Source: a virus
DNA length: 64,000 bases
Direction: 5' to 3' (one strand)
Virus record (IMG/VR): IMGVR_UViG_3300033475_000008
Coordinates: 27,441 to 91,440 of that record
A program made the position numbers and the translations under genes. Within the stretch, counting starts at the first letter, position 1, and each line of letters starts with the position of its first letter. The notes under the pieces are model-generated. The model saw only the letters and a program-made list of their open reading frames with translations, did not search any database and had not been told where the DNA came from. Positions 1-43,436 of the stretch are shown in pieces.

Positions 1-62
1 CAGTTTGGCAGAGCACCCGCCTTGTAAGCGGAAGCGCGTCGGTTCGAAGCCGGCTACCAGCT
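1..62 (+). tRNA. tRNA-Thr(TGT), 5'-truncated by window edge
   Basis: Anticodon arm ccgc-CT TGT AA-gcgg; T-arm gtcgg-TTCGAAG-ccggc. Confidence 0.85.
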
Positions 63-171
63 CGGACCACGCCTTCGCGAGAAGACCTAGGCGCGTGGTG
101 ACAGGGTTCATGGTGAGAGATCGGTGTCACGGACCATGAAAGCTACCAGGGTGGGCAGGGTAGTGCAACAC

Positions 172-244
172 CGGGATGTGGCCTAGTTGGTAAGGCACGT
201 GACTGGGGGTCACGAGAGCGCTGGTTCGAGTCCAGTCATCCCGA
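172..244 (+). tRNA. tRNA-Pro(GGG)
   Basis: Acceptor cgggatg/catcccg; anticodon cgtga-CT GGG GG-tcacg; TTCGA T-loop. Confidence 0.93.
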
Positions 245-342
245 CGGAAGTGCCACCCCTCGAGATTCTGACGCTGGGGGCGCTGAGTTAAGACGCGTCA
301 GGTCTTGGCTGGTTTGCCGGTACCAACCACCACCGGTTCTAG

Positions 343-413
343 GCTCTTGTAGCTCAATGGGAGAGCGCCTCGTTCACACCGAGGATACGGAGGTTCGATT
401 CCTCTCAAGAGTA
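343..413 (+). tRNA. tRNA-Val(CAC)
   Basis: Acceptor gctcttg/caagagt; anticodon cctcg-TT CAC AC-cgagg. Confidence 0.92.
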
Positions 414-414
414 C

Positions 415-486
415 GGTGACCGTGGTGTAGCGGTAACACGCTTGACTGTGGCTCAAGCGTCACGGGTTCGATCCCCGTCGGTCACA
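415..486 (+). tRNA. tRNA-His(GTG)
   Basis: G-1 plus acceptor gtgaccg/cggtcac; anticodon cttga-CT GTG GC-tcaag; discriminator A. Confidence 0.9.
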
Positions 487-632
487 CGCGTAGGGAGTCG
501 CTGGTCCCCATGCACTAGCCGTTCTACTTCGAGTCGCGCACCGGCCAGCTACCGGGAAGAGTCAAAAGTGATGATCCACCGTCCGCTGGTGGAAGTAGAG
601 CCAAGATAGAAGATCATCACAACCAGCACCAC

Positions 633-819
633 GTGTCTGTAGCTCAGGATAGGACAGAGCGGCCCGAACAACGGAGGGCGGCAGGCAAGAGGTTTGCGGA
701 TGCACCGGGTCCGGGCCTGACGGTCACAAGCCGAAGGGTTGGGGTACCTTATCCCCCGGCAGGGAAGCGCGTTTGACCAAACTTGCCCATCAGCGTGGGT
801 TCGAATCCCACCAGACACG
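633..819 (+). ncRNA. tRNA-Arg-like RNA with degenerate anticodon arm and ~105-nt structured insertion
   Basis: Perfect acceptor gtgtctg/cagacac, D-arm gctc/gagc and T-arm gtggg-TTCGAAT-cccac, with ~135 nt between the D- and T-arms. Confidence 0.75.
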
Positions 820-829
820 CGTAGTACGA

Positions 830-889
830 GGGCCTAGTTACCCAAGGTGAGGGTGCGCGCGCAACCGGGTTCGACTCCCGCTAGGTCCA
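830..889 (+). ncRNA. Anticodon-less mini-tRNA (60 nt) with G3·U70 and A73
   Basis: gggcctag/ctaggtcc stem, D-like accc-aaggtga-gggt, 11-nt linker, cggg-TTCGACT-cccg. Confidence 0.7.
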
Positions 890-890
890 C

Positions 891-963
891 GGGTCTGTAG
901 CTCAGAGGACAGAGCCGCCGGCTTCTACCCGGCTGGTCGTGGGTTCGACTCCCACCGGGCCCA
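891..963 (+). tRNA. tRNA-Arg(TCT)
   Basis: Anticodon gccgg-CT TCT AC-ccggc; canonical D and T arms. Confidence 0.92.
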
Positions 964-980
964 CTGGTTGAGATTGGTTG

Positions 981-1009
981 TTTACATCTAGTCGAGATCG
1001 TGGTATAGT
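981..1009 (+). promoter_or_regulatory. sigma70-type promoter (TTTACA-17-TATAGT)
   Basis: Member of a motif family that recurs about 14 times in the window. Confidence 0.75.
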
Positions 1010-1059
1010 GGTTCTAGCAGGACAGCAGGAAGCAAAACTGAAGAGTGACGAGTAACGAT

Positions 1060-1135
1060 GAGTCTGTAGCACAGCGGATAGTGCAGCTGCTTCCGAAGCA
1101 GCAGGTCGGAGGTTCGAATCCTCTCAGGCTCACCA
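1060..1135 (+). tRNA. tRNA-Arg(CCG), CCA encoded
   Basis: gctgc-TT CCG AA-gcagc; acceptor gagtctg/caggctc followed by ACCA. Confidence 0.95.
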
Positions 1136-1302
1136 GCGATGCTGGCACCAGGGCATAAGCGTGACGGTCAACCACGGCTGAGAGTCGGACTGATGAGCAA
1201 CGGTCCACCTGGTGGAGGTGCGGGCACTAACGCGTGGTGGCGAGTGTACCAACAGATCCTCACCCTTCTTGCTCTGAGACTTACCACCTCAGAGCAAGAA
1301 GG
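1136..1302 (+). ncRNA. Unrecognised tRNA-trailer structured RNA, copy A
   Basis: Colinear with 1383-1546, with compensatory changes in at least four helices. Confidence 0.75.
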
Positions 1303-1306
1303 TCAA

Positions 1307-1379
1307 GCCTCTGTAGCACAGCGGATAGTGCGCCTGATTACGGATCAGGAGGCCGGGGGTTCGAATCCCTCCAGGGGTA
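1307..1379 (+). tRNA. tRNA-Arg(ACG)
   Basis: cctga-TT ACG GA-tcagg; acceptor gcctctg/caggggt. Confidence 0.93.
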
Positions 1380-1382
1380 CAA

Positions 1383-1546
1383 GTGGTGCCAGTACCGGGG
1401 CACAAGCGGAGGGCAGCACTCCGGCTGAGAGTCGACTCGATGAGCAACGAGTCACCGGGTAGAGGTGAGTGAAGCTAACGGGTGGTGCCGAGTGGAACGA
1501 CAGATCCTCAACCAGTCAGGCCCAGGGCTCACCACCCTGGGCCTGA
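1383..1546 (+). ncRNA. Unrecognised tRNA-trailer structured RNA, copy B
   Basis: Shares GGCTGAGAGTC, ATGAGCAAC, GTGGTG and ACAGATCCTCA with copy A; stems covary. Confidence 0.75.
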
Positions 1547-1552
1547 GTGGTG

Positions 1553-1580
1553 TTTACACCTCATCAAAGTGTGGTAGGAT
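1553..1580 (+). promoter_or_regulatory. sigma70-type promoter (TTTACA-16-TAGGAT)
   Basis: Recurrent motif upstream of the DUF932 gene. Confidence 0.7.
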
Positions 1581-1624: not shown

Positions 1625-2539
1625 ATGACCACGAGTACCATCGAGAACCGCACACTCCCCTGGTCCGGCTTGAGCACCGGTATCACCAGCGAGATCGTTG
1701 ACAGCCAGAACCTGCTCCAGAGCGCTGGCTTGGATTTCGACGTCGCGATCCGACCCATGTGGCGTCGACTCAGTGACGGCAACTTCGTGCAGGACCTGCG
1801 TGACCGTGAGGTCTACCGCACCGACACGGAGCACAAGCTCGGCACCGTGAAGACTCGCTACGAGATCTTCCAGAACCGAGACGCGTTCACCTTCGGTGAC
1901 GAACTCGTCAAGGGCGGTCACGGTCAGTGGGTGGAGGCTGGCTGCCGCAACGACGGGCGCCACGTCTTCATGACCATGAAACTGGGTGAGGGGTTCACCG
2001 TCGCCGGGCAGGACGCCTACGACCTCTACCTCTTCCTCCGCACCAGCCACGACGGCTCCACCGGCGTGTCCGCCCACGTGGTCCCGTTCCGGGTGTGGTG
2101 CCTCAACCAGACGGGACTGGTGATGAAGGAGCACGTGTCCTCCTGGACCGTGCAGCACACGACCAGTCTGGCTCAGAAGCTGACTGAGGCGAAGGCCGCT
2201 CTCCAGCTCTCCCAGTCCTACGGGGCCGCCCTGCAGACGCGGCTGGAAGACCTGGTGAAGAACCCGGTCTCCAAGATGCACGTCAAGTCCCTGCTGGAGA
2301 AGATCGTCCCGGAGACTCGTCCCAAGCGGGAAGAAATGATCGACGGGATCATGAACAACCTGAAGGACTCCCCGAACCTGGAGGGGTACCGAGACACCGC
2401 CTACGGGGCCCTGAACGCGGTCACGGAGTGGTACGACCACCTGAAGACGCAGCGCACCCCGGTGGCCCGCTTCGACTCGATCATGGCGGGTGAGGGCGCG
2501 AAGATGCGCAACCAGCTGGCCCTCGCCTTGGCCGCCTGA
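1625..2539 (+). CDS. DUF932 / phage-plasmid TIGR03299-like protein
   Basis: LGxVxxRYxIFQNxDAF, SHDGS, RVWCLNQ and TAYGALNAVTEW motifs; GAGGAG RBS. Confidence 0.85.
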   Translation: MTTSTIENRTLPWSGLSTGITSEIVDSQNLLQSAGLDFDVAIRPMWRRLSDGNFVQDLRDREVYRTDTEHKLGTVKTRYEIFQNRDAFTFGDELVKGGHGQWVEAGCRNDGRHVFMTMKLGEGFTVAGQDAYDLYLFLRTSHDGSTGVSAHVVPFRVWCLNQTGLVMKEHVSSWTVQHTTSLAQKLTEAKAALQLSQSYGAALQTRLEDLVKNPVSKMHVKSLLEKIVPETRPKREEMIDGIMNNLKDSPNLEGYRDTAYGALNAVTEWYDHLKTQRTPVARFDSIMAGEGAKMRNQLALALAA

Positions 2540-22092: not shown

Positions 22093-23970
22093 TCAGCTGA
22101 ACGGCGTGGTGTCGGAGACCTGAAGGCCCTGGAGGATGCCCGAGTATTGTGGGGCGTGAGCGCACAGAGCGCCGTACAGGAAGATCGAGTAGCGGAAGGT
22201 CGCGTCGATGACCGGCCACGCGATGGACACGTAGTCCTGCACGCAGGTCATCTCCCAGGCGTTGGCCACGTTGGACCAAGTCTGTGGGAGCTGGTAGGTC
22301 ATCGCCATGGCGGTGCCCTGGGTGAGCCAGGGGTGGACCGTCAGGTTCAGGATCGACTTGGTGATCGGGTTCTGGAACTGGGAGACCGCGGCACCGACCC
22401 GGACACCGGCCACGTCGGGCTGGTCCAGGAAGAGTCGGTAGTTGGTCGCCGAGCCCTGAGAGATCACGTCGTTGCTGAGCCGCATGATGTCGCCACCGTT
22501 GCCGATGAGCTCAGCGGGGTCAGCCTTGAACGCGCCGGTGTTGGTACCGTTGGTCTCCCACAGGCCATCCAGCATCTGGTACACGGCGTTGTAGGAGAGG
22601 TGGGTACCGACGGACTGGTTGACGTAGCCGCCCTGCCAGCCGCTCGGGTAGACACCAGCGCTGGCGGAGGCACCGGTGAGTGTCGGGATGACACCCTCCA
22701 TGCGAGTGCCCTTGCCGGTTCCCGTGTCAGTGGTCGGCGGGTGAGCACCGGCACCGGCTGCGGGTCCCTGGATGGTGATGTACTTGCCACCAACCGGGGT
22801 GCTGGACTGGGTGCCCACGGAGGTGACACCGGCCTGAGTGGTGGCGCCAACCTGCAACCAGAGCTGCGAGTTGGTCGGGGTGGCAGAAGCCGTGGCCACG
22901 TAGATGTTGTAGGTCTGAGCACCGGCGACCGGGGCGATGGCCACGTCGACGACGTTGGTGGTACCCACCGTGGTGATGTCCGTGGACACCGCGCTGGCGA
23001 CAGTCTCACCGTAGTAGTTGACGGCCGTGACCGCGACCACGAAGTGAGCGGGGGAGCCACCGATCGGGGTCTCGTTGCTACCCGCGGTACGCAGGGTGGT
23101 GGTGACCGCACCTGGCGTGGCCAGGGGAGCGCTGGTGCCAGCGAGCATCATGTACTCCTCGCCCAGCATCATCTCCTGGAGGAGGATGAGGTTGGCGAGG
23201 GAGCTGATGTCCTCGAAGCCCTGACCCGCGAACTGAGCGAGGAAGGACAACTGCTCAGTGAGGCCGAAGAACCGGTATGGCACGTTGAGTGCCTGCTCGG
23301 TCTGGTTGCCAGACTGTGGCAGGTTGAGTGGCCAGCTGCTGAAGCTGGTGGAACCGGTGAGCTCCGCGGTGGAGATGTCCAGGACACCCTGGCCACCGGT
23401 ACCGGAGCCGCTGATGCCGGTGAGCACCTTCTCCTGCATCGAGGTACCCTGGCCGGCTGGGCGAGGGAGCTTGTTGCGGAGGACAGTGTAGACCGGGTAG
23501 ATCAGACGAGACGGGGCCCGGAGGTCAAAGGGGACCAGGCCGTAGATGCTGCCGATACCGAGGTTGCCCGCGGTGAAGGACTTCTGAACCGCCTCGGGAC
23601 CACCGGGGAGGCTGCTCATCATCTCGGCCATCTGCTCCGCGATGGAGGGAGCGGTGAAAGCCGACTTCATGAGACCGAAGTTGTCCATGAAGCCCTTGTT
23701 GAGGCCGGCGACGACCTTGGACTTGTGGAACACGCTTCGACTGGTGGCCACGCGCAGGTCCATGGTGGCCTGGTGCGACCGGAGAGCGATCTCACCCTCG
23801 TCTTGGAGGGGCTGGTTACCGGTGACGAAACCGGCTCCCTTGACGAGTTCACCCATGCGCTTCTGGATCATCTCGCCAGTGTGGCTGTACTTGGGTGCCT
23901 CCTCGGTGGCTCCGGCGATCACCGAACCCTGAGAGGTAGGCATCTCCATGGTGGACAGGATGTCTGCCAC
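22093..23970 (-). CDS. Major capsid protein (long; N-terminal pro-region and FN3-like insertion)
   Basis: Position after protease/scaffold; FDL.APS..IYP..T.LRNKLPR; strong codon bias. Confidence 0.8.
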   Translation of the reverse strand: MADILSTMEMPTSQGSVIAGATEEAPKYSHTGEMIQKRMGELVKGAGFVTGNQPLQDEGEIALRSHQATMDLRVATSRSVFHKSKVVAGLNKGFMDNFGLMKSAFTAPSIAEQMAEMMSSLPGGPEAVQKSFTAGNLGIGSIYGLVPFDLRAPSRLIYPVYTVLRNKLPRPAGQGTSMQEKVLTGISGSGTGGQGVLDISTAELTGSTSFSSWPLNLPQSGNQTEQALNVPYRFFGLTEQLSFLAQFAGQGFEDISSLANLILLQEMMLGEEYMMLAGTSAPLATPGAVTTTLRTAGSNETPIGGSPAHFVVAVTAVNYYGETVASAVSTDITTVGTTNVVDVAIAPVAGAQTYNIYVATASATPTNSQLWLQVGATTQAGVTSVGTQSSTPVGGKYITIQGPAAGAGAHPPTTDTGTGKGTRMEGVIPTLTGASASAGVYPSGWQGGYVNQSVGTHLSYNAVYQMLDGLWETNGTNTGAFKADPAELIGNGGDIMRLSNDVISQGSATNYRLFLDQPDVAGVRVGAAVSQFQNPITKSILNLTVHPWLTQGTAMAMTYQLPQTWSNVANAWEMTCVQDYVSIAWPVIDATFRYSIFLYGALCAHAPQYSGILQGLQVSDTTPFS

Positions 23971-24031
23971 GGTGTGTCCTTTCAACGGGAAGCTAGTTGC
24001 CCTGTCGCCGGGCCGGCGGTCGAAGTGGTGA

Positions 24032-26953
24032 TTAGTCGATACCGCGCATCTGCAAGATGCCCTTCAAGGCTGCTTCCCGCTGCCGTGGGTCGTCCGAGTT
24101 GAGGTACCGCTCCTGCAGCACCTGCAACTTCCCCAGCTGTGACCGGTCTTGGACCGTGGCCAGGGTAGTCGGGGACGTCTCGTCCCCGAGGCTCTTGGTG
24201 GAACGTGGCTGAGCGAGGCCCCGCCACGGAGCGACGCGAGGGTCGGGCTCGTCAGCGAGCTGCTCGATCTCCTTACGCGCCTTCTTGAGCAACTTCCGCT
24301 GCTCTGCCAGGTCATCCTGGGCCCTGGTCAACTCAGCGACCAGGGGTGCCGTAGCCTCAGCCACCGCGCTCTTGACCAGGTCGGGGACCAGTGACTTGAG
24401 AAGGACCTGCATGTCAGGTGAGGCACCCGCGGCCTTCTGCACGTTCCCAGACTCACCGTCCACGGTGAGTTGCCGGGGAGTGTCGTGACTGGTGGCCTCC
24501 ACCTGCTCAGTGGGAACGTGTTCCATGGCTTCCTCTGAGGTGAGGCTCATGGGGCAGAGTCCACTGTGTGACTTGGCCAGGTGATCGTGAAGGAGAAGCA
24601 TCGCGGACCGGGTGGTCTCTCGGTGTTGCGTGACTCGCATGGTCCGAGTCTCGGCGTCAGCGCCCTTGTTGGCTGGGCTGTCTGCTGCCGCACCACCGTG
24701 GAGGAACCCACGCTGGAACTGGCTCGCCGTGATCTGCCCACCGATGACGGGTGCCGTGTTGGGTCCCGCGTACTGGAAGGAGGGACGAGCGTTGCCGGAC
24801 ACGATGAGGGGGCGCCGGAACTGCTGTGCCGTCACGTGACCAGGGGTGAGAGCGGTTCCCGGTCCCGGGTTGGCGTCTGTGAAGGACTTGTGCAGCTCCT
24901 GGTGAAGCTCCAACAGGACGTCTGGGTCTGCGTTCTTGACCACGGTGGCCGCGTACCAGCGGTCCTGGGCTGCCAGGGCCTCTTCCATGGGAGCGCCGGC
25001 AGCAGTCTTCATGGCCTCACGCTGCCACAGGGTGGTGTCCAACCCGGTGAGGTCCCGGTAAGGGTGTGCCAGGGTCAGGGACTTGTGACTGTAGGCGGGG
25101 CAGAGAAGGTCATGAAGCGCGCCCAGTTCACCGCCGACACCCAGGGTCTCGTGCTTCATGGCAGTCTTCATGGCCACCTGGTCATCTGGCACGGTGTCCA
25201 GGTGAGCGTCTGCCTCAAAGGACTCGATGGCAGTACCGTCTGGCTCGCGGTGAGGGGCGACGGGCTGCGCGGACATGCCGGTGACCCCGTCAGCGGGGGT
25301 GGGCTCACTGCGGTGAATGCTCTTGGTGACCTCAGCCTTGGCACCGCAGTTGGGGCAAAACTTGGCCTTCTTGCCCATGCTGGCACTGCACTTGCTGCAG
25401 CTGGACTTGCCCTTCTTCACCTTGGGTGTCTCAACGGCCTTGTCTGCCTCGTCAGAGTCATCACCGTCGTCATCAGCCTCGTCTGGACCACCGTCACTGC
25501 GGTTGTCCATCTCGTCTTCACCGTCATCGCCCTCGTCGTCAGGGGCCGGCTTCTTGGACTTGTCGACCGCGTCCTCGTCGTCGCCACCGAGCTTCTCACC
25601 GCACTTGCAGGTGTCAGCGTCGGCCTTGTTGAAGTGCTTACAGCTGGGGCACTGCTTGCCCCCTGCCTTCTCGACGGTCTCATCCTCAGTCACGGCATCT
25701 CCCTTGTCGATACCCAGCTCCTTCTTCCAGGCGTCCGGGAGCTGTGCCACGAACGCTGAGCCCTTGCGGCGGGCGATGCTGATGATGCGGTTCTTGACCG
25801 AGCCAGGGTTGTCAGCCTTGCCGACGAGTGACGCGGCGTCTTGCACGTCACCAGGGGTGACGATGGGATAGGTGCGATTGGGTCCCGCGAAGTCCTCAGC
25901 AGGGAGCTTGTCCCGGTCCACGCCGCCACCGACGTTGGGATCAATCTTCTTCTCAAGGTCAATCGTGCCGGCCTTGTGCTTGTCATCCTGCAGTGCTTGA
26001 AGTGCTTGCAGGATCTCAAGGTTCTGGGGTGAAGCCGGCTTGGTCTTCATGTCTTCAAGGATGGAGCTGATTGACTCACTGGTTGTCGGCTTCACACCAG
26101 GTGCCGCGGTGTGCGTCGCGTTATGGTGATTAGCCAGGGTGGCGAGAGCTGCCGCTGGCTTAGCCTTGAACCCGAGGTCAGTGCCGTCCTCATGGGTGAT
26201 CTTACGACCCGCGTACTTGCCGGTACCGTTGGGTGCCGCGATGTGCCCGATCTTCTCACCGGTGGGCTTGTGGACTACGTCACCGTTGGGCTTGCGCTGC
26301 AGATCACCTACGTTGACGGGTCCAACCTTGATCCAACCATGAGAGTAGCCGTGTGGGCCGACTTTCTCTACCACGTCTTCAGTCTGGTGCTTGTTGAGCA
26401 CCCGCGCTAGATCAGTTGGGCTGGGGGCTGGCCGGCCGAAGAGCTTGCCCACCCATTCCGCGTCACCGGTCTTGGCAGCCTTGACGAGCTCGAATCGGCA
26501 GTTCTTGTTGGCCGGGCGGTCTACCAGGGAGATCTCACCCAGTTCACCACCGATGATGCGACCGTTGACCGCGTGCTTGTCAGCGACGATGACCGGGTGC
26601 ATGATCCCCACGGAGTAGGACCGAAGCACGCCCTTCTTCACGAGGTCCTTCGCGACGGGTTCCACAACCAGGGACTTGACCCACTGACCACCGTTGCCGT
26701 CGCTGTCGACCTCGATACCACGCCCCACGGGACGGTACTGGTCGTGCTGGACTCGAACGTTGCCCCCGGTGTCCAGCCAGTCCTTCACGGCCTTGGCGGC
26801 CCACTCAGGGTCTACGATCTGTCGGTCACTGTCAACGATCCCGTCGGTGGCCTTACCGTAGACGATGACGTCACCGTCTGCCGTGGTTTCCATCTTGGCG
26901 ATGGGGAAGGAGACGTAGGTCACCTCACCGTCGGGGGTCAGCGTGGCTGCCAT
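24032..26953 (-). CDS. Prohead protease (XkdF-like) / scaffold polyprotein
   Basis: VYGKATD..VDSDRQIV..VRVQH..EISLVDRPAN protease motifs; double zinc ribbon; C-terminal coiled coil. Confidence 0.8.
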   Translation of the reverse strand: MAATLTPDGEVTYVSFPIAKMETTADGDVIVYGKATDGIVDSDRQIVDPEWAAKAVKDWLDTGGNVRVQHDQYRPVGRGIEVDSDGNGGQWVKSLVVEPVAKDLVKKGVLRSYSVGIMHPVIVADKHAVNGRIIGGELGEISLVDRPANKNCRFELVKAAKTGDAEWVGKLFGRPAPSPTDLARVLNKHQTEDVVEKVGPHGYSHGWIKVGPVNVGDLQRKPNGDVVHKPTGEKIGHIAAPNGTGKYAGRKITHEDGTDLGFKAKPAAALATLANHHNATHTAAPGVKPTTSESISSILEDMKTKPASPQNLEILQALQALQDDKHKAGTIDLEKKIDPNVGGGVDRDKLPAEDFAGPNRTYPIVTPGDVQDAASLVGKADNPGSVKNRIISIARRKGSAFVAQLPDAWKKELGIDKGDAVTEDETVEKAGGKQCPSCKHFNKADADTCKCGEKLGGDDEDAVDKSKKPAPDDEGDDGEDEMDNRSDGGPDEADDDGDDSDEADKAVETPKVKKGKSSCSKCSASMGKKAKFCPNCGAKAEVTKSIHRSEPTPADGVTGMSAQPVAPHREPDGTAIESFEADAHLDTVPDDQVAMKTAMKHETLGVGGELGALHDLLCPAYSHKSLTLAHPYRDLTGLDTTLWQREAMKTAAGAPMEEALAAQDRWYAATVVKNADPDVLLELHQELHKSFTDANPGPGTALTPGHVTAQQFRRPLIVSGNARPSFQYAGPNTAPVIGGQITASQFQRGFLHGGAAADSPANKGADAETRTMRVTQHRETTRSAMLLLHDHLAKSHSGLCPMSLTSEEAMEHVPTEQVEATSHDTPRQLTVDGESGNVQKAAGASPDMQVLLKSLVPDLVKSAVAEATAPLVAELTRAQDDLAEQRKLLKKARKEIEQLADEPDPRVAPWRGLAQPRSTKSLGDETSPTTLATVQDRSQLGKLQVLQERYLNSDDPRQREAALKGILQMRGID

Positions 26954-27021
26954 GCTCCTCCTTTGGCATATGAAAAGACGAGCCGTGCCTCAGGCACGAC
27001 TCGTCTAGTGACCATAGTATA

Positions 27022-27225
27022 TCACGCAGTGTCACTGGAGCCACTGCCGGTTTGAGCATTGTAGCGACGCATGAAGTCATCGGCCTCGTCAGCAGGAAGA
27101 GTAGTGTGGTCACCCTCGTAGACCGCGCTGAGTCGGTCCTTGAAGGCACCCTCAGCTTCCTCTTGCTTGACGTCCTCGTCTGGCTCAAGGTCGTCGTGCT
27201 CGTCTGGGGCCTGCTCGTCGCTCAT
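27022..27225 (-). CDS. Small acidic protein
   Basis: Coupled to the 1302-aa gene. Confidence 0.5.
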   Translation of the reverse strand: MSDEQAPDEHDDLEPDEDVKQEEAEGAFKDRLSAVYEGDHTTLPADEADDFMRRYNAQTGSGSSDTA

Positions 27226-30200
27226 GCCTGTCCGATCTTGTTGTACATGGTGTGGTTGCCATCAGACTTGCTGATACCGACGATGGTGATGTCAGCGCGG
27301 CGACGGCCATCTGACCCGACGACGTCACTGTTCACGTGGTACATGGTGCCTCGTTGCAAGAGGATCTCTGCCTCACTGCTGTAGTAGGAGACACCCTTCA
27401 CGTCCATGCCCTTGGCACCCTTTGGAGCGTGGATGGTGAGGAGGAGTCCCTTGCTGCCCCAGCCACCGAAGTTCTGTCCCACGTGTTCCTTGGTACTGGT
27501 GGACATGAAGGAGTGTTGCACGCCGACCTTGCCGACCTGACTACCGACGGGACCGAGCATGCCCTCACCGTCATTGATGCCACGGTGCAGGGTCATATCC
27601 TGAGTGAGCTCACTCTTGTCCAGGGCTGAGGTGAGGTTGTTGCCAGCCGTGTCACCGGTCTTCTGGTCGTGGTGAAGCTTGGCGAGCGCGACCTTCTTGT
27701 TGATGGTGCCGTACCAGCTACCGGTGTACTTCTTGACCGCGGCGAGTTCACCGGCACTCAGTGTCTCGTTGCCCAAGGTGGTGTGAACTGACTTGGGAAC
27801 GTGAACCGCCGCCGGTGCCACCGGAGTGAGGTTGACTTGTTGAGCGAGTGACGGCTTGGGCTTAGGTGCGCTCTCATCCTTGGCCAACTTGACGGCTTGC
27901 TGGTGAGCGTAGGCCAGTGAACCCTTGGCCTCCCACGAGTTGCTAACAGTCCAGGTGGCACCACTGTGAGCGTGTGTGACCGTGGCTGTGCCATCTGGGT
28001 TGGTCTTGATCGTGCCCAGGTGAGTGACCTGATCGGCTTGAGTGTCCCAGGGGTTGCTGTGATAGTCGACGTTGGCCACACCGGTAGTCGAGTCGACGGG
28101 ACCCACCATGGTCTTGTAGTTGTAACCAGGAGTGCCTGGGTCCAACTTGGCCAGTGCGCTGTCTGGGTCCTTCTTCACCACCTGGTGGATAGCCGTGGTC
28201 TGGTTGTGATAGTTGGCCAACTTGGCGACGGCTTCCTTCTTGGTGCTGGAGTTGGGAAGCTTGGTGCCGTCTTCGTGTTGAACCACCCAGGCGTTGTGCC
28301 AGTTCTTGCTGACCGTGCCGATCTGCTGCTTGCTGACCTTGTCGATGGCGGCGTGGGTGCCGTCTTGCTTGACTGAGACGTCGGTGGGCTTGACCGCGGT
28401 GCCGGCCTTGAGCCAGGCAGGCGGCGGTTCTGGAGCCGGTGCTGAGGGTACCGTTGCCGCGGGTGACGTTGACGGTGGAAGCTTGTCGATCTCATCGTTG
28501 TGATAGTTGATGAGAGCCTTCTTAGCGTGATAGACGTCACTGTAGGCCGGCAACGTCTTGCCACTGGCGTGTGTCGGTACCGCGCCACCGCTCACCGGGA
28601 GGTTGATTTCTCCGATGACGACGTTGTTGTGCGTGACCTTGTCTGACACGGTATTGTAGTGCGCGTCATCGCTGTAACTGATGTGACCGGCGGCGGCCCA
28701 CTCTGGTACTGGACTGACTGGTGTCTCAGCCGGTGCCGTCATTTCGGTGATGCCGGCGTACTTCTTGTTGTGGTACGCGGCCACGGCTTGTGAGGGTGAG
28801 TTGCCTACGCCTACCGGGACAGCAGTACTATCAGCGTGAGTAGCCGTATAGCCACCAGAATCGGGCTTGTAGTGACCCACCACGGTGCCTGTCGGCTTGT
28901 GGACAAGGTCACCGGCACCATCAGGGAAGACGTCCTTGGCGTTGATCGCGCCGAGCTTCTCGTAGTCCTTCTTCTCAGGTGTCGACGGTGGTGTCGGTGA
29001 TGAGGAACTCCCACTCAGTGAGTTGTGATACTCCGAGAGAGTGAGCTTGGCGTGTTGCGCTGCGCCGCCAGGGAGCACGGCACCGCTCGACGTGAAGTGC
29101 TTCACGTCAAGAACAGTCCCGTCCACGTGCTTGACTTGCTTGAAACTCGGCTTACCAGATGTGGGGATGGTCTCACCGATCTTCTTGCCGGTGGCGTCAT
29201 CCACGAAGTCCATGCTACCGGGCTCGTTACCTGGTACCAGTGTCATGCCAGCCGGTGTGACCTTAGCCGGGAGATCCAACTTGGGCTTCGGCTTGGGGAG
29301 TTCCACTGAGACTGCCGGTGCCTCTGGCTGAGCGACGTGTCCCTCCCCACCCTTCATCTTGGAGTTGTGGTGAAGAGCGATGCTGGCCAGGGCGTTGCCC
29401 TTGTAGACACCGGTGTGAGTGTGAGTGCCGTCAGCGTGGGTGGCCGTAAAGGTGCTGGTGCCCTTCTTCGGTGTGTCTGCTTGCTTGGCCAGGTGGCCGA
29501 CCACGGTTCCCGTGGGCTTGTGGACCACGTCGCCGTTCTTCTTGACACTGAGGTCCTGCGTGTTGATCTCACCACCGGCCTTGGCCCAGGGTGCAGTGGG
29601 GTGAGTGGCCGGGGTGGGAGCAGCGACCGTGGCACTCTGAGCGGGAGTGATCGGCTTGGCCATCTCGCCGGGTGCGGTCTTCTTAGCCGGGACCTTGACC
29701 GGTGTTGACGAGTCATGCGTGGTACCACCCACGGGGCTCTGCATGCCGTGAAGCTGCTCGTGGGCCTTGAGTTGTTCGTGGATGCTGTCGTAACCTTGAC
29801 CAGGGGTGGCGAAGTTCCGGGCCTGAGTGAGCTCGGTGTGAGCCTTCATCGCGTCACCACTTGCCAGGGCGTTGGCCGCGGCATGGAGGTGGTTGGCGGC
29901 ACTCGTGTCGCCCTGCTTGGTAGCGTGTTGAGCCAGGAGATGCAGGTTGTGATACTCGGCTACCGAGTCCACGGCCTCTTGGTGGGTCTGGTGCTTGGTC
30001 ATGAGCTTCATCTTGCCAGAGCCGATGACCGCGCCGTTGTGTTGTCCACTGAACGTGCCGTCCGCGTTCTTGCGGATACCACCGATCTGCTGACCACCGA
30101 CGTAGGTCTTGCCCTCCAGGTGCCCACCGTGGTAGATCTTGCCGTTCTTGGGGTCCCGCCAGGCCTTGGTGGTGCCGTGGCCACAGGGTGGCCGGACGCA

Positions 30201-42158: not shown

Positions 42159-42260
42159 GGACGCTCTCCTCACGTGGATGCTGGCCCTACCGCGGGAAGA
42201 AAACGGTAGGGCCAGCGGTCTATGTGGACATCCTATCACGGAAGGATGCCTGGTGACAGG

Positions 42261-42662
42261 TCAGCAGTCGTCCTCGTCGTTGACGTCACCGGAGATGTCT
42301 TCGCAGTCCGCGCAGGTCGTGACCTGCTTGCCGTCTGCGTCGAACTCGTTGTCTGCCTCGAACTCGATGCCGCACTCGTCACACTCGATCATGGAGGGAC
42401 TGGCCTTACCGTAGACCGGCTTCTGGGACTTACCGACCCAGCCGTTCTCGTAGTGGGCCTGGGTCTCGGCGGCGTACGCCTTGCGGGCCTCGTCGATGTA
42501 GGGCTGCAGGAACTCGCGGAACGCCTGGTTCGCCGCGTCGTAAGCCGCGAACCCGAAGTAGTGGGCCCGAGTGGCATACATCTCCAAGAACTCCTCGCGC
42601 TGGGCCCGGAGGGCCAGCTGCTCGGCCCGGAACTTGATCCACTGTGCGCGGTTGAGCTTCAT
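42261..42662 (-). CDS. Zinc-ribbon hypothetical protein
   Basis: Promoter and leader identical to the DUF932 leader; CDEC..CADC. Confidence 0.7.
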   Translation of the reverse strand: MKLNRAQWIKFRAEQLALRAQREEFLEMYATRAHYFGFAAYDAANQAFREFLQPYIDEARKAYAAETQAHYENGWVGKSQKPVYGKASPSMIECDECGIEFEADNEFDADGKQVTTCADCEDISGDVNDEDDC

Positions 42663-42710
42663 GGTGGTCTCCTCAATCACTCGGCGCCAGCTCCCTGGCC
42701 TGTTGGGTAT

Positions 42711-42784
42711 AACCTATCACGGCGTGGCGTAGATGTAAACAGTCTCGTGGCTTTGTTTACACGAGTACGCACCCTATATAAGGT
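42711..42784. promoter_or_regulatory. Divergent promoter pair
   Basis: Minus strand TTTACA-17-TAGGTT (42739-42711); plus strand TTTACA-17-TAAGGT (42756-42784). Confidence 0.7.
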
Positions 42785-42815
42785 AGCCCCAGGAGTTGAG
42801 AGTGAGGAGAGAGTG

Positions 42816-43436
42816 ATGACCCTACAGATGAAGAGCGTGGAGCAGCTCCGAGCGCAGAGCTCTGTGACCGAGGAGGGACTGAGTCGCGGTCACCAGCTCG
42901 GTTTGACCACGGTGCAGGTGGAACTGCTGTCCCTCCTGACCGAGGGGATGAGCAACGTCGAGGCCGCGGAGCGCCTCGGCACCACCGTGGACAGCGTGAA
43001 GCACCGCCTCAAGGAGGTGTGCAAGCTCCTGGGGGTGCAGGGTGCCTCAGCAGGTGAGAGGCGAGCTCGAGCCGTGCTCACCAGTTGGCTGTTCGCGGCA
43101 GGGGTACTGCCTCGCCTCTCCCCGGGCAAGGACCCCATGTGGCGCCGCTACCTGACCAAGCGTGAGGCTGAGACCCTGCTGGGCCTGGCCGTGGGGAAGA
43201 GCAACGACGAGCTCTCTGAGTGGCTGAACATCACGGTGGGCACGGCGAAGACCCACGTCCAGTGGCTGATCAGAGTACTGGTGGCCCAGGAAAGAGTGCA
43301 CGCCGTACGCCGCGGCTTTGAGCTGGGTATGCTGGACGTGATCCGTCCAGAGGAATCTGGTGGTGAGTGGCTCGTGCGAGTCCGACGTCGTCGCGACGAG
43401 GGGTGGCTCGCTGAGTTGCCCCTGCCCGTGGCCTGA
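42816..43436 (+). CDS. Tandem LuxR-type HTH regulator
   Basis: Two LT..E...L..G.SN...A..L.....TVK.H motifs. Confidence 0.85.
   Translation: MTLQMKSVEQLRAQSSVTEEGLSRGHQLGLTTVQVELLSLLTEGMSNVEAAERLGTTVDSVKHRLKEVCKLLGVQGASAGERRARAVLTSWLFAAGVLPRLSPGKDPMWRRYLTKREAETLLGLAVGKSNDELSEWLNITVGTAKTHVQWLIRVLVAQERVHAVRRGFELGMLDVIRPEESGGEWLVRVRRRRDEGWLAELPLPVA

Follow-up and report, generated by a model that had tools for sequence, protein, structure and literature searches.

Non-decoding RNA elements between the tRNA genes of a probable actinophage

Layout of the tRNA array

Phage transfer RNA (tRNA) arrays are usually read as a supply of codon-matched tRNAs or as a replacement for tRNAs destroyed by host defences, and the gaps between their genes are left unannotated or carry spurious "hypothetical protein" calls. 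Here we describe the gaps of the tRNA array in a single IMG/VR virus record, IMGVR_UViG_3300033475_000008 (91,440 bp, 61.5% GC, estimated to be 89% complete), bases 27441-91440 of which form the 64,000-nucleotide (nt) stretch under analysis, hereafter the window. The phage is most likely an actinophage, since its nearest proteins and RNA elements come from phages of Streptomyces, Gordonia, Arthrobacter, Microbacterium and Mycobacterium. ARAGORN finds 40 tRNA genes in the whole genome, 39 of them in one plus-strand array at genome positions 23805-28820, and positions 1-1546 of the window are the final 1.5 kb of this ~5-kb array. Scattered among the tRNA genes are RNA elements that do not decode, two of which, a tRNA-shaped RNA at 633-820 and a cloverleaf upstream of the window, represent widespread families that are absent from Rfam.

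Over the entire array the gaps fall into two length classes, short ones of 0-12 nt and long ones of 32-171 nt, plus a single gap of 403 nt. The long gaps in the window are 64-171, 246-342, 488-890, 965-1059, 1136-1306 and 1381-1546. A first-pass annotation of this region, made by a model from the letters and a list of open reading frames (ORFs), had counted seven tRNAs in 1.5 kb and no credible ORF. Both statements are borne out: seven tRNAs, one of them partial, are called in 1-1546, and no ORF of at least 30 amino acids (aa) on the two strands lies clear of the tRNAs and conserved RNAs. The features at this end of the window are listed below in window coordinates, where z is the fold-energy z score against dinucleotide shuffles.

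1-63, plus strand: 3' part of tRNA-Thr(tgt), a gene that begins 12 nt upstream of the window (ARAGORN on the whole genome; Rfam tRNA match clipped at the 5' end)
64-171, plus strand: spacer with three predicted hairpins, no sign of an RNA gene (z = -0.08)
172-245, plus strand: tRNA-Pro(ggg) (ARAGORN, Rfam)
246-342, plus strand: spacer with three predicted hairpins and a predicted 7-nt loop-loop complementarity (z = -0.39)
343-414, plus strand: tRNA-Val(cac), one base from tRNA-His(gtg) (ARAGORN, Rfam)
416-487, plus strand: tRNA-His(gtg) (ARAGORN, Rfam)
488-632, plus strand: spacer, no sign of a conserved RNA (z = -0.33)
633-820, plus strand: tRNA-shaped non-decoding RNA, with 17 distinct homologues and covariation
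830-889, plus strand: anticodon-less mini-tRNA of 60 nt, with homologues in contigs L018 and L079
891-964, plus strand: tRNA-Arg(tct) (ARAGORN, Rfam)
965-1059, plus strand: promoter P2 and leader (-35 at 981-986, -10 at 1004-1009; TTTACA-17-TATAGT at 981-1009, 10/12 matches)
1060-1135, plus strand: tRNA-Arg(ccg), the sole gene among the 40 tRNA genes with an encoded CCA
1136-1306, plus strand: RNA A, with a multi-hairpin core at 1136-1262 and a 14-bp 3' hairpin at 1265-1301 (z = -2.45)
1307-1380, plus strand: tRNA-Arg(acg) (ARAGORN, Rfam)
1381-1546, plus strand: RNA B, a paralogue of A, with a terminal 12-bp hairpin at 1516-1546 (z = -2.79)
1553-1580, plus strand: promoter P3, TTTACA-16-TAGGAT, ahead of the first protein gene
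1625-2539, plus strand: first protein gene, DUF945-like

A family of tRNA-shaped, non-decoding RNAs

The RNA at 633-820 combines an acceptor stem of 7 bp with D and T arms of normal form. The anticodon position holds a 4-bp stem with a 10-nt loop (9-12 nt across the family), and the position of the variable arm is taken by a near-invariant domain of ~110 nt. Alignments show the near-invariant core GCGGAUGCACCGGGNCCGGGCC ... CCCCCGGNAGGGAAGCG together with the acceptor, D and T arms and a pairing between the loop and the extra arm. Covariation across the 17 distinct sequences bears out the fold: 90% of cells are paired, compared with 31-53% in slid controls, 24 pairs are changed on both sides, and pairing reaches 100% in the stems of the acceptor, the anticodon position and the T arm. 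The sequence AAACG in the anticodon-position loop pairs with CGUUU just 3' of the invariant GGGAAGCG, and this loop-to-insert pairing covaries across independent lineages, as ACACG/CGUGU in L044 and L069 and as AAAGC/GCUUU in L065 and L067. An alternative TGCG/CGCG helix was dropped in favour of the covarying loop pairing. The copy in phage Quantum carries an extra 30-nt hairpin inside one loop, which fits the expectation for a real helix.

Homologues found by blastn lie in Gilsonvirus phages, directly 3' of tRNA-Leu(gag) and unannotated there except in Moab, and inside the tRNA array of the Streptomyces phages Quantum and Satis. Pattern scans add copies from IMG/VR and metagenomes, mostly within tRNA arrays, including one in L068 that is 87% identical; matches in L009, L014, L015, L017 and about half of L039-L070 were chance matches in coding DNA and were excluded. 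No model in Rfam 15 matches the RNA, and ARAGORN calls it only when its settings are relaxed, reading it as a tRNA that contains an intron of 94 nt. We considered a tRNA interrupted by a group I intron and rejected it, as the ~110-nt insert occupies the variable-arm position and has no Rfam intron match.

Conserved elements in the upstream part of the array

The first-pass annotation had proposed that the upstream part of the array be inspected, and there we found three further conserved or covarying elements, listed here in genome coordinates.

23886-23961, in the array: tRNA-Cys(GCA)-like gene in which a 7-bp hairpin replaces the D arm; missed by ARAGORN and Rfam, conserved in metagenome contig L068
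25047-25167 (2.3 kb before the window), between tRNA-Lys and tRNA-Leu: trailer cloverleaf, a widespread and unannotated family
26477-26551, in the array: circularly permuted tRNA-like element (z -2.69)

The trailer cloverleaf is a four-way junction with an invariant hairpin, GCGGAAACCCUUACUCCGC, whose loop is UAGUAGG, and it occurs in a long form (~120 nt) and a short form (~74 nt). Across the family, 94.6% of cells are paired, compared with 42-49% in slid controls, and 19 pairs covary. A pattern scan retrieved 18 IMG/VR loci, of which 16 are true members (one a duplicate sequence) and L021 has the hairpin only. The family is also present in the Streptomyces phages Frankenweenie, Quantum, Kradal, Satis, JustBecause and Kela and in the Gordonia phages Boopy and Forza, and the short form exactly fills a gap of a 17-tRNA array on a Streptomyces chromosome contig. 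Upstream sequence was available for 18 loci, and in 16 of these the invariant hairpin lies 11-12 nt past the point where the called tRNA gene ends, regardless of the identity of the tRNA; the cloverleaf therefore begins within a base or so of the tRNA end. Divergent copies of the cloverleaf were sought in the window and none was found. Together with the 633-820 type, the cloverleaf answers a check that had been proposed for the spacers, namely whether they recur across actinophages: both families do so, in the arrays of unrelated phages.

Some annotated coding sequences (CDSs) coincide with these RNAs. The "hypothetical protein" gp140 of Streptomyces phage Moab (L006 391-723) overlaps a tRNA-shaped RNA, and the "hypothetical protein" CDSs gp206 of Kradal and gp207 of EhyElimayoE overlap a cloverleaf RNA; all three CDSs are probably mis-annotations.

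In the permuted element an 8-nt loop closes the acceptor stem of 7 bp, and the two ends of the RNA are joined by an open stem of 6 bp. The element copies neither adjacent tRNA, and its blastn matches in other phages are tRNA-tRNA junctions only. As for the tRNA-Cys-like gene, tRNA-Cys is otherwise missing from the array.

When 285 inter-tRNA gaps of the fetched loci were compared all against all in a small analysis, further recurrent families between unrelated contigs came to light. Spacers are conserved between the unrelated viral or metagenome contigs L011 (5634-5773) and L046 (6663-6937), and likewise between L049 (4477-4593, minus strand) and L081 (4150-4266); these may be additional RNA families.

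An anticodon-less mini-tRNA

The 60-nt element at 830-889 consists of a 7-bp acceptor stem with a G3:U70 pair (832:886) and A73 (889), a 5-bp hairpin, a GCGCGCG block and a T arm. Its homologues in the viral contigs L018 and L079 both lie in tRNA clusters; G3:U70 and A73 are kept in all three sequences, and acceptor positions 5-7 and the hairpin show compensatory changes among them. Since G3:U70 and A73 together make up the established identity set for alanine, the element is predicted to be charged by alanyl-tRNA synthetase.

In design the element resembles the tRNA-like domain of transfer-messenger RNA (tmRNA), minus the body. Like the tmRNAs found in actinophage arrays, for example that of Gordonia phage Boopy, it places a tRNA-like domain with G3:U70, A73 and a T arm inside a phage tRNA array; it differs in being only 60 nt long, without the tag reading frame or the pseudoknots. 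ARAGORN reports no tmRNA in the genome at default settings and spurious calls only at relaxed settings. In another viral tRNA cluster, L081 2400-2426 and its flanks have a 3' end very like that of tmRNA (GCGGGTTCGAATCCCGCCAGCTCCACC), on which ARAGORN tmRNA detection makes no call.

Paralogous RNAs A and B

A 247-nt tandem duplication of the unit [tRNA-Arg + element] includes RNAs A and B, each of them ~165 nt long and joined directly to the 3' end of a tRNA-Arg. Both RNAs fold more stably than their shuffles (see list above), and the 30 core pairs are all present in A as well as in B, seven of them changed on both sides, compared with 0-1 in slid controls. Reading the sequence further, the loop UACCAC of the 3' hairpin of A (1282-1287) is complementary to a GUGGUG loop at 1234-1239, and the loop CACCA in the 3' hairpin of B (1530-1534) to the conserved GUGGUG loop (1483-1487). 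Through such a kissing interaction the hairpin would belong to the RNA.

No homologue was found by blastn against phages or by a three-block pattern in the metagenome collection; the IMG/VR pattern scan gave one chance match inside a coding region, and the covariance model R2, run over 355 kb of fetched arrays, found only the genome's own two copies. Two candidate identities, a hammerhead (CUGAUGAG) and a TPP riboswitch (CUGAGA), were rejected: B lacks CUGA, there is no partner motif, and Rfam gives no match.

Each of the two RNAs ends in a strong hairpin right before the next tRNA or P3, and the cloverleaf is attached to a tRNA 3' end regardless of the tRNA. Such placement would suit structured spacers that act in cis, by guiding or timing the processing of the neighbouring tRNA, shielding the precursor from exonucleases or terminating transcription, and that are degraded afterwards. 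We consider this account quite improbable. The tRNA before the cloverleaf varies (Lys, Tyr, Arg, Leu, Ile, Asp, Pro, Thr), so that no specific tRNA needs the element; most tRNAs of the array do with spacers of 0-12 nt; and the near-invariant loops and cores suggest the binding of a partner in trans.

Neither A nor B, nor 633-820 or 830-889, has an Rfam tRNA match (E up to 1) or a default ARAGORN call. The claim that tRNA finders overlook RNAs in this array holds for conserved or covarying elements that number at least four inside the window and three upstream of it.

Promoters and transcription units

A promoter scan found three sigma-70-like promoters. In addition to P2 and P3, promoter P1 (plus strand, TTTACA-18-TATAGT) lies just ahead of the first tRNA of the array. 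P1 and P2 have their flanks, their hexamers and the leader AGCAGGACAGCAGGAA in common, and on the strength of this match of flanks and leader to the promoter before the array, the gap at 965-1059 reads as the promoter plus leader of a second RNA operon and holds no non-coding RNA (ncRNA). The array would thus be two RNA operons, one transcribed from P1 and the second from P2 (981-1009), the latter comprising the last two tRNA-Arg genes and RNAs A and B and closed by the hairpin at 1516-1546. This hairpin, a terminator-like site in the scan, probably ends the operon. All non-tRNA elements are on the plus strand, between tRNAs, downstream of P1 or P2 and upstream of the terminal hairpin.

Gaps without support for an RNA

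Four stretches of the window have fold energies close to those of their shuffles: 63-171 (z -0.08), 246-342 (-0.39), 488-632 (-0.33) and the promoter gap 965-1059 (-0.04). No homologues of 63-171, 246-342 or 488-632 were found among 50,697 phage records, where 488-632 gave chance-level matches only, and 63-171 has no match in the fetched tRNA arrays either. The 488-632 stretch is missing from the other loci with the 633-820 RNA, in which the tRNA-shaped RNA starts at most ~25 nt after a tRNA. Local alignments of the window spacers with the gaps of L018 were weak and unconvincing on inspection. We see in these three spacers sequence without evidence of function.

The first-pass annotation had held that nearly every long gap contains a structured element, which fails in the window: besides the four stretches with z near zero, the six gaps as a group do not differ in stability from coding-region controls (p = 0.23). 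Its count of seven non-canonical RNAs stands in part, as the elements at 633-820, 830-889, 1136-1306 and 1381-1546 are real, 965-1059 is a promoter, and 63-171, 246-342 and 488-632 are unproven.

Such gaps, with z near zero, a promoter in one of them and no homologues for the other three or for three more upstream, are what one would expect of an ordinary tRNA operon whose long gaps are mostly filler (promoters, terminators, processing signals, decayed or rearranged tRNA remnants), with a few RNA genes lodged in it because arrays are recombination hot spots and no dedicated ncRNA platform. Mosaic shuffling of this kind also predicts the variation in gene order that we see between arrays with common elements, and it is in keeping with the permuted element, given its matches to tRNA-tRNA junctions alone. 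It accounts less well for the array as a whole, whose 18 long gaps are more stable than coding controls (mean z -1.50 vs -0.17, Mann-Whitney p = 1e-4), for the at least six elements that are conserved or covarying, or for the cloverleaf, whose contact with the end of a tRNA gene in 16 of 18 loci would not arise from random lodging. We therefore regard the filler account as possible, but rather doubtful.

Proposed excision by tRNA processing

A better account, which we think fairly probable, is that stable non-decoding RNA genes are scattered among the tRNAs of the array and are excised by tRNA processing. The non-tRNA RNAs are conserved or covarying and lie flush against tRNA ends, and most of them imitate parts of a tRNA without the ability to decode. 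tRNA precursors without an encoded CCA are cut by RNase Z after the discriminator, and CCA is then added; RNase P cuts the 5' end of the tRNA. With 39 of the 40 tRNA genes lacking CCA, RNase Z and RNase P would release each spacer as a discrete RNA, and excision of the spacers in this manner is plausible. In most tRNA genes of the array, the discriminator is followed by C-GCA or C-GTA, a conserved trailer motif.

In the mechanism that we propose, a polycistronic precursor would be cut by RNase P at the 5' end of each tRNA and by RNase Z after each discriminator, and the RNAs between the cuts would be released with defined ends and survive owing to ends that are paired or capped by a hairpin. 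Several features fit such survival: in the cloverleaf and in the permuted element the 5' end is base-paired with the 3' end, a hairpin closes the 3' side of both A and B, and 633-820 and 830-889 end like tRNAs themselves. With such ends, the last two would undergo processing as tRNAs and not as spacers, contrary to the first-pass annotation, which had treated all elements as spacers released by the processing of their flanking tRNAs.

Because most elements copy parts of a tRNA and yet cannot decode, the role that seems most likely to us, speculative and loosely held, is to bind or act as decoys for proteins that recognise tRNA, such as host tRNA-targeting nucleases, synthetases, and modification or repair enzymes.

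Several points weigh against a set of excised RNA genes with such a role. Three spacers of the window (63-171, 246-342 and 488-632) show neither conservation nor excess stability, and the three upstream gaps mentioned above have no homologues. RNAs A and B are without a homologue outside their own genome, and their covariation is that of two sequences, the structure under test having been derived from the same two. No TROVE match, the mark of a Ro60 gene, is present in the 91-kb genome, estimated to be 89% complete, to accompany the Y-RNA-like permuted element. The decoy function is itself speculation. Finally, the phage has no close relatives in accessible collections that would allow a comparison of synteny: a megablast of 20 kb gave no match, the closest match to its proteins is 34% identical, and a search for relatives with three proteins returned only L018, which has a methyltransferase fragment in common and a different array, and one match at 27% identity.

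Relation to known systems

RNAs from phage tRNA regions are known already; what is new here is the number and kind of the elements. The tRNA region of phage T4 transcribes RNAC and RNAD (species 1 and 2 RNAs), whose roles are still unknown (PMC3014915, PMC9697503) and whose expression has been confirmed by Northern blot (PMC9697503). These are likewise small stable RNAs transcribed from a phage tRNA cluster along with the tRNAs (PMC3014915), and all elements described here share with them a same-strand location inside the phage tRNA transcription unit. The two cases differ in scale, with eight tRNAs and two extra RNAs in T4 compared with 40 tRNAs and at least seven extra elements here, several of which mimic tRNA. 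We saw no similarity in sequence or structure between the T4 RNAs and these elements, and it is for the T4 RNAs that expression has been shown. The proposal that the array doubles as a platform for ncRNA expression thus survives in its conserved or covarying elements with boundaries at tRNA ends; it loses three unsupported stretches and one promoter, and the idea itself was already known.

Phage tRNA arrays also carry tmRNA, and they adjoin Ro-like genes (PMC4201824). YrlA-type Y RNAs (RF02553) are tRNA-mimicking ncRNAs in phage genomes (PMC4201824; bioRxiv 10.1101/312249), and the permuted element is like them in topology, with a loop-closed acceptor stem and an RNA that opens at the anticodon stem. 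It differs in leaving no room for a Ro60-binding stem and in the lack of a TROVE gene, and it scores 36.2 bits against RF02553, for which the gathering threshold is 69. The authors of that work warn that neighbouring tRNAs produce false YrlA matches (PMC4201824; bioRxiv 10.1101/312249); a match to the same model at 838-949 of the window reaches 27.8 bits against that threshold and overlaps a real tRNA.

In other hosts, tRNA-processing enzymes are known to excise functional RNAs from tRNA precursors. The Escherichia coli 3'ETS-leuZ is a sponge for small RNAs that is excised from a tRNA precursor (PMC8166272), and the TMERs of murine gammaherpesvirus 68 (MHV68) are tRNA-linked precursor microRNA hairpins cut by tRNase Z (PMC4838037). 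Their effectors differ as well, the sponge being Hfq-dependent and the TMERs relying on Dicer, and the elements of this array are larger, more structured and mostly tRNA-like.

The recurrence of two RNA families in unrelated actinophage arrays, one of them also in an array on a Streptomyces chromosome, indicates that the arrays carry a second, unrecognised cargo. If the RNAs accumulate and bind proteins that recognise tRNA, they would add a new layer to the interaction of phage and host, and they would be natural examples of the tRNA scaffold used for recombinant RNA expression. The families are defined well enough for submission to Rfam and for tests in culturable phages (Gilson, Quantum, Boopy).

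A wider reading, which we hold to be unlikely, is that actinophage arrays are a shared, horizontally shuffled site for tRNA-mimic RNAs (anticodon-locked tRNA-shaped RNAs, mini-tRNAs with alanine identity, trailer cloverleaves, permuted tRNAs and lineage-specific RNAs such as A and B), all excised by the tRNA machinery and directed, as decoys or adaptors, at host systems by which tRNAs are targeted or sensed. If so, the array would serve counter-defence no less than codon supply.

Other observations

Farther into the window, at 42222-43436 on the plus strand, a gene encodes a 404-aa protein with matches to GerE (a LuxR-type helix-turn-helix) and to sigma-70 region 4, which may be a phage transcription factor.

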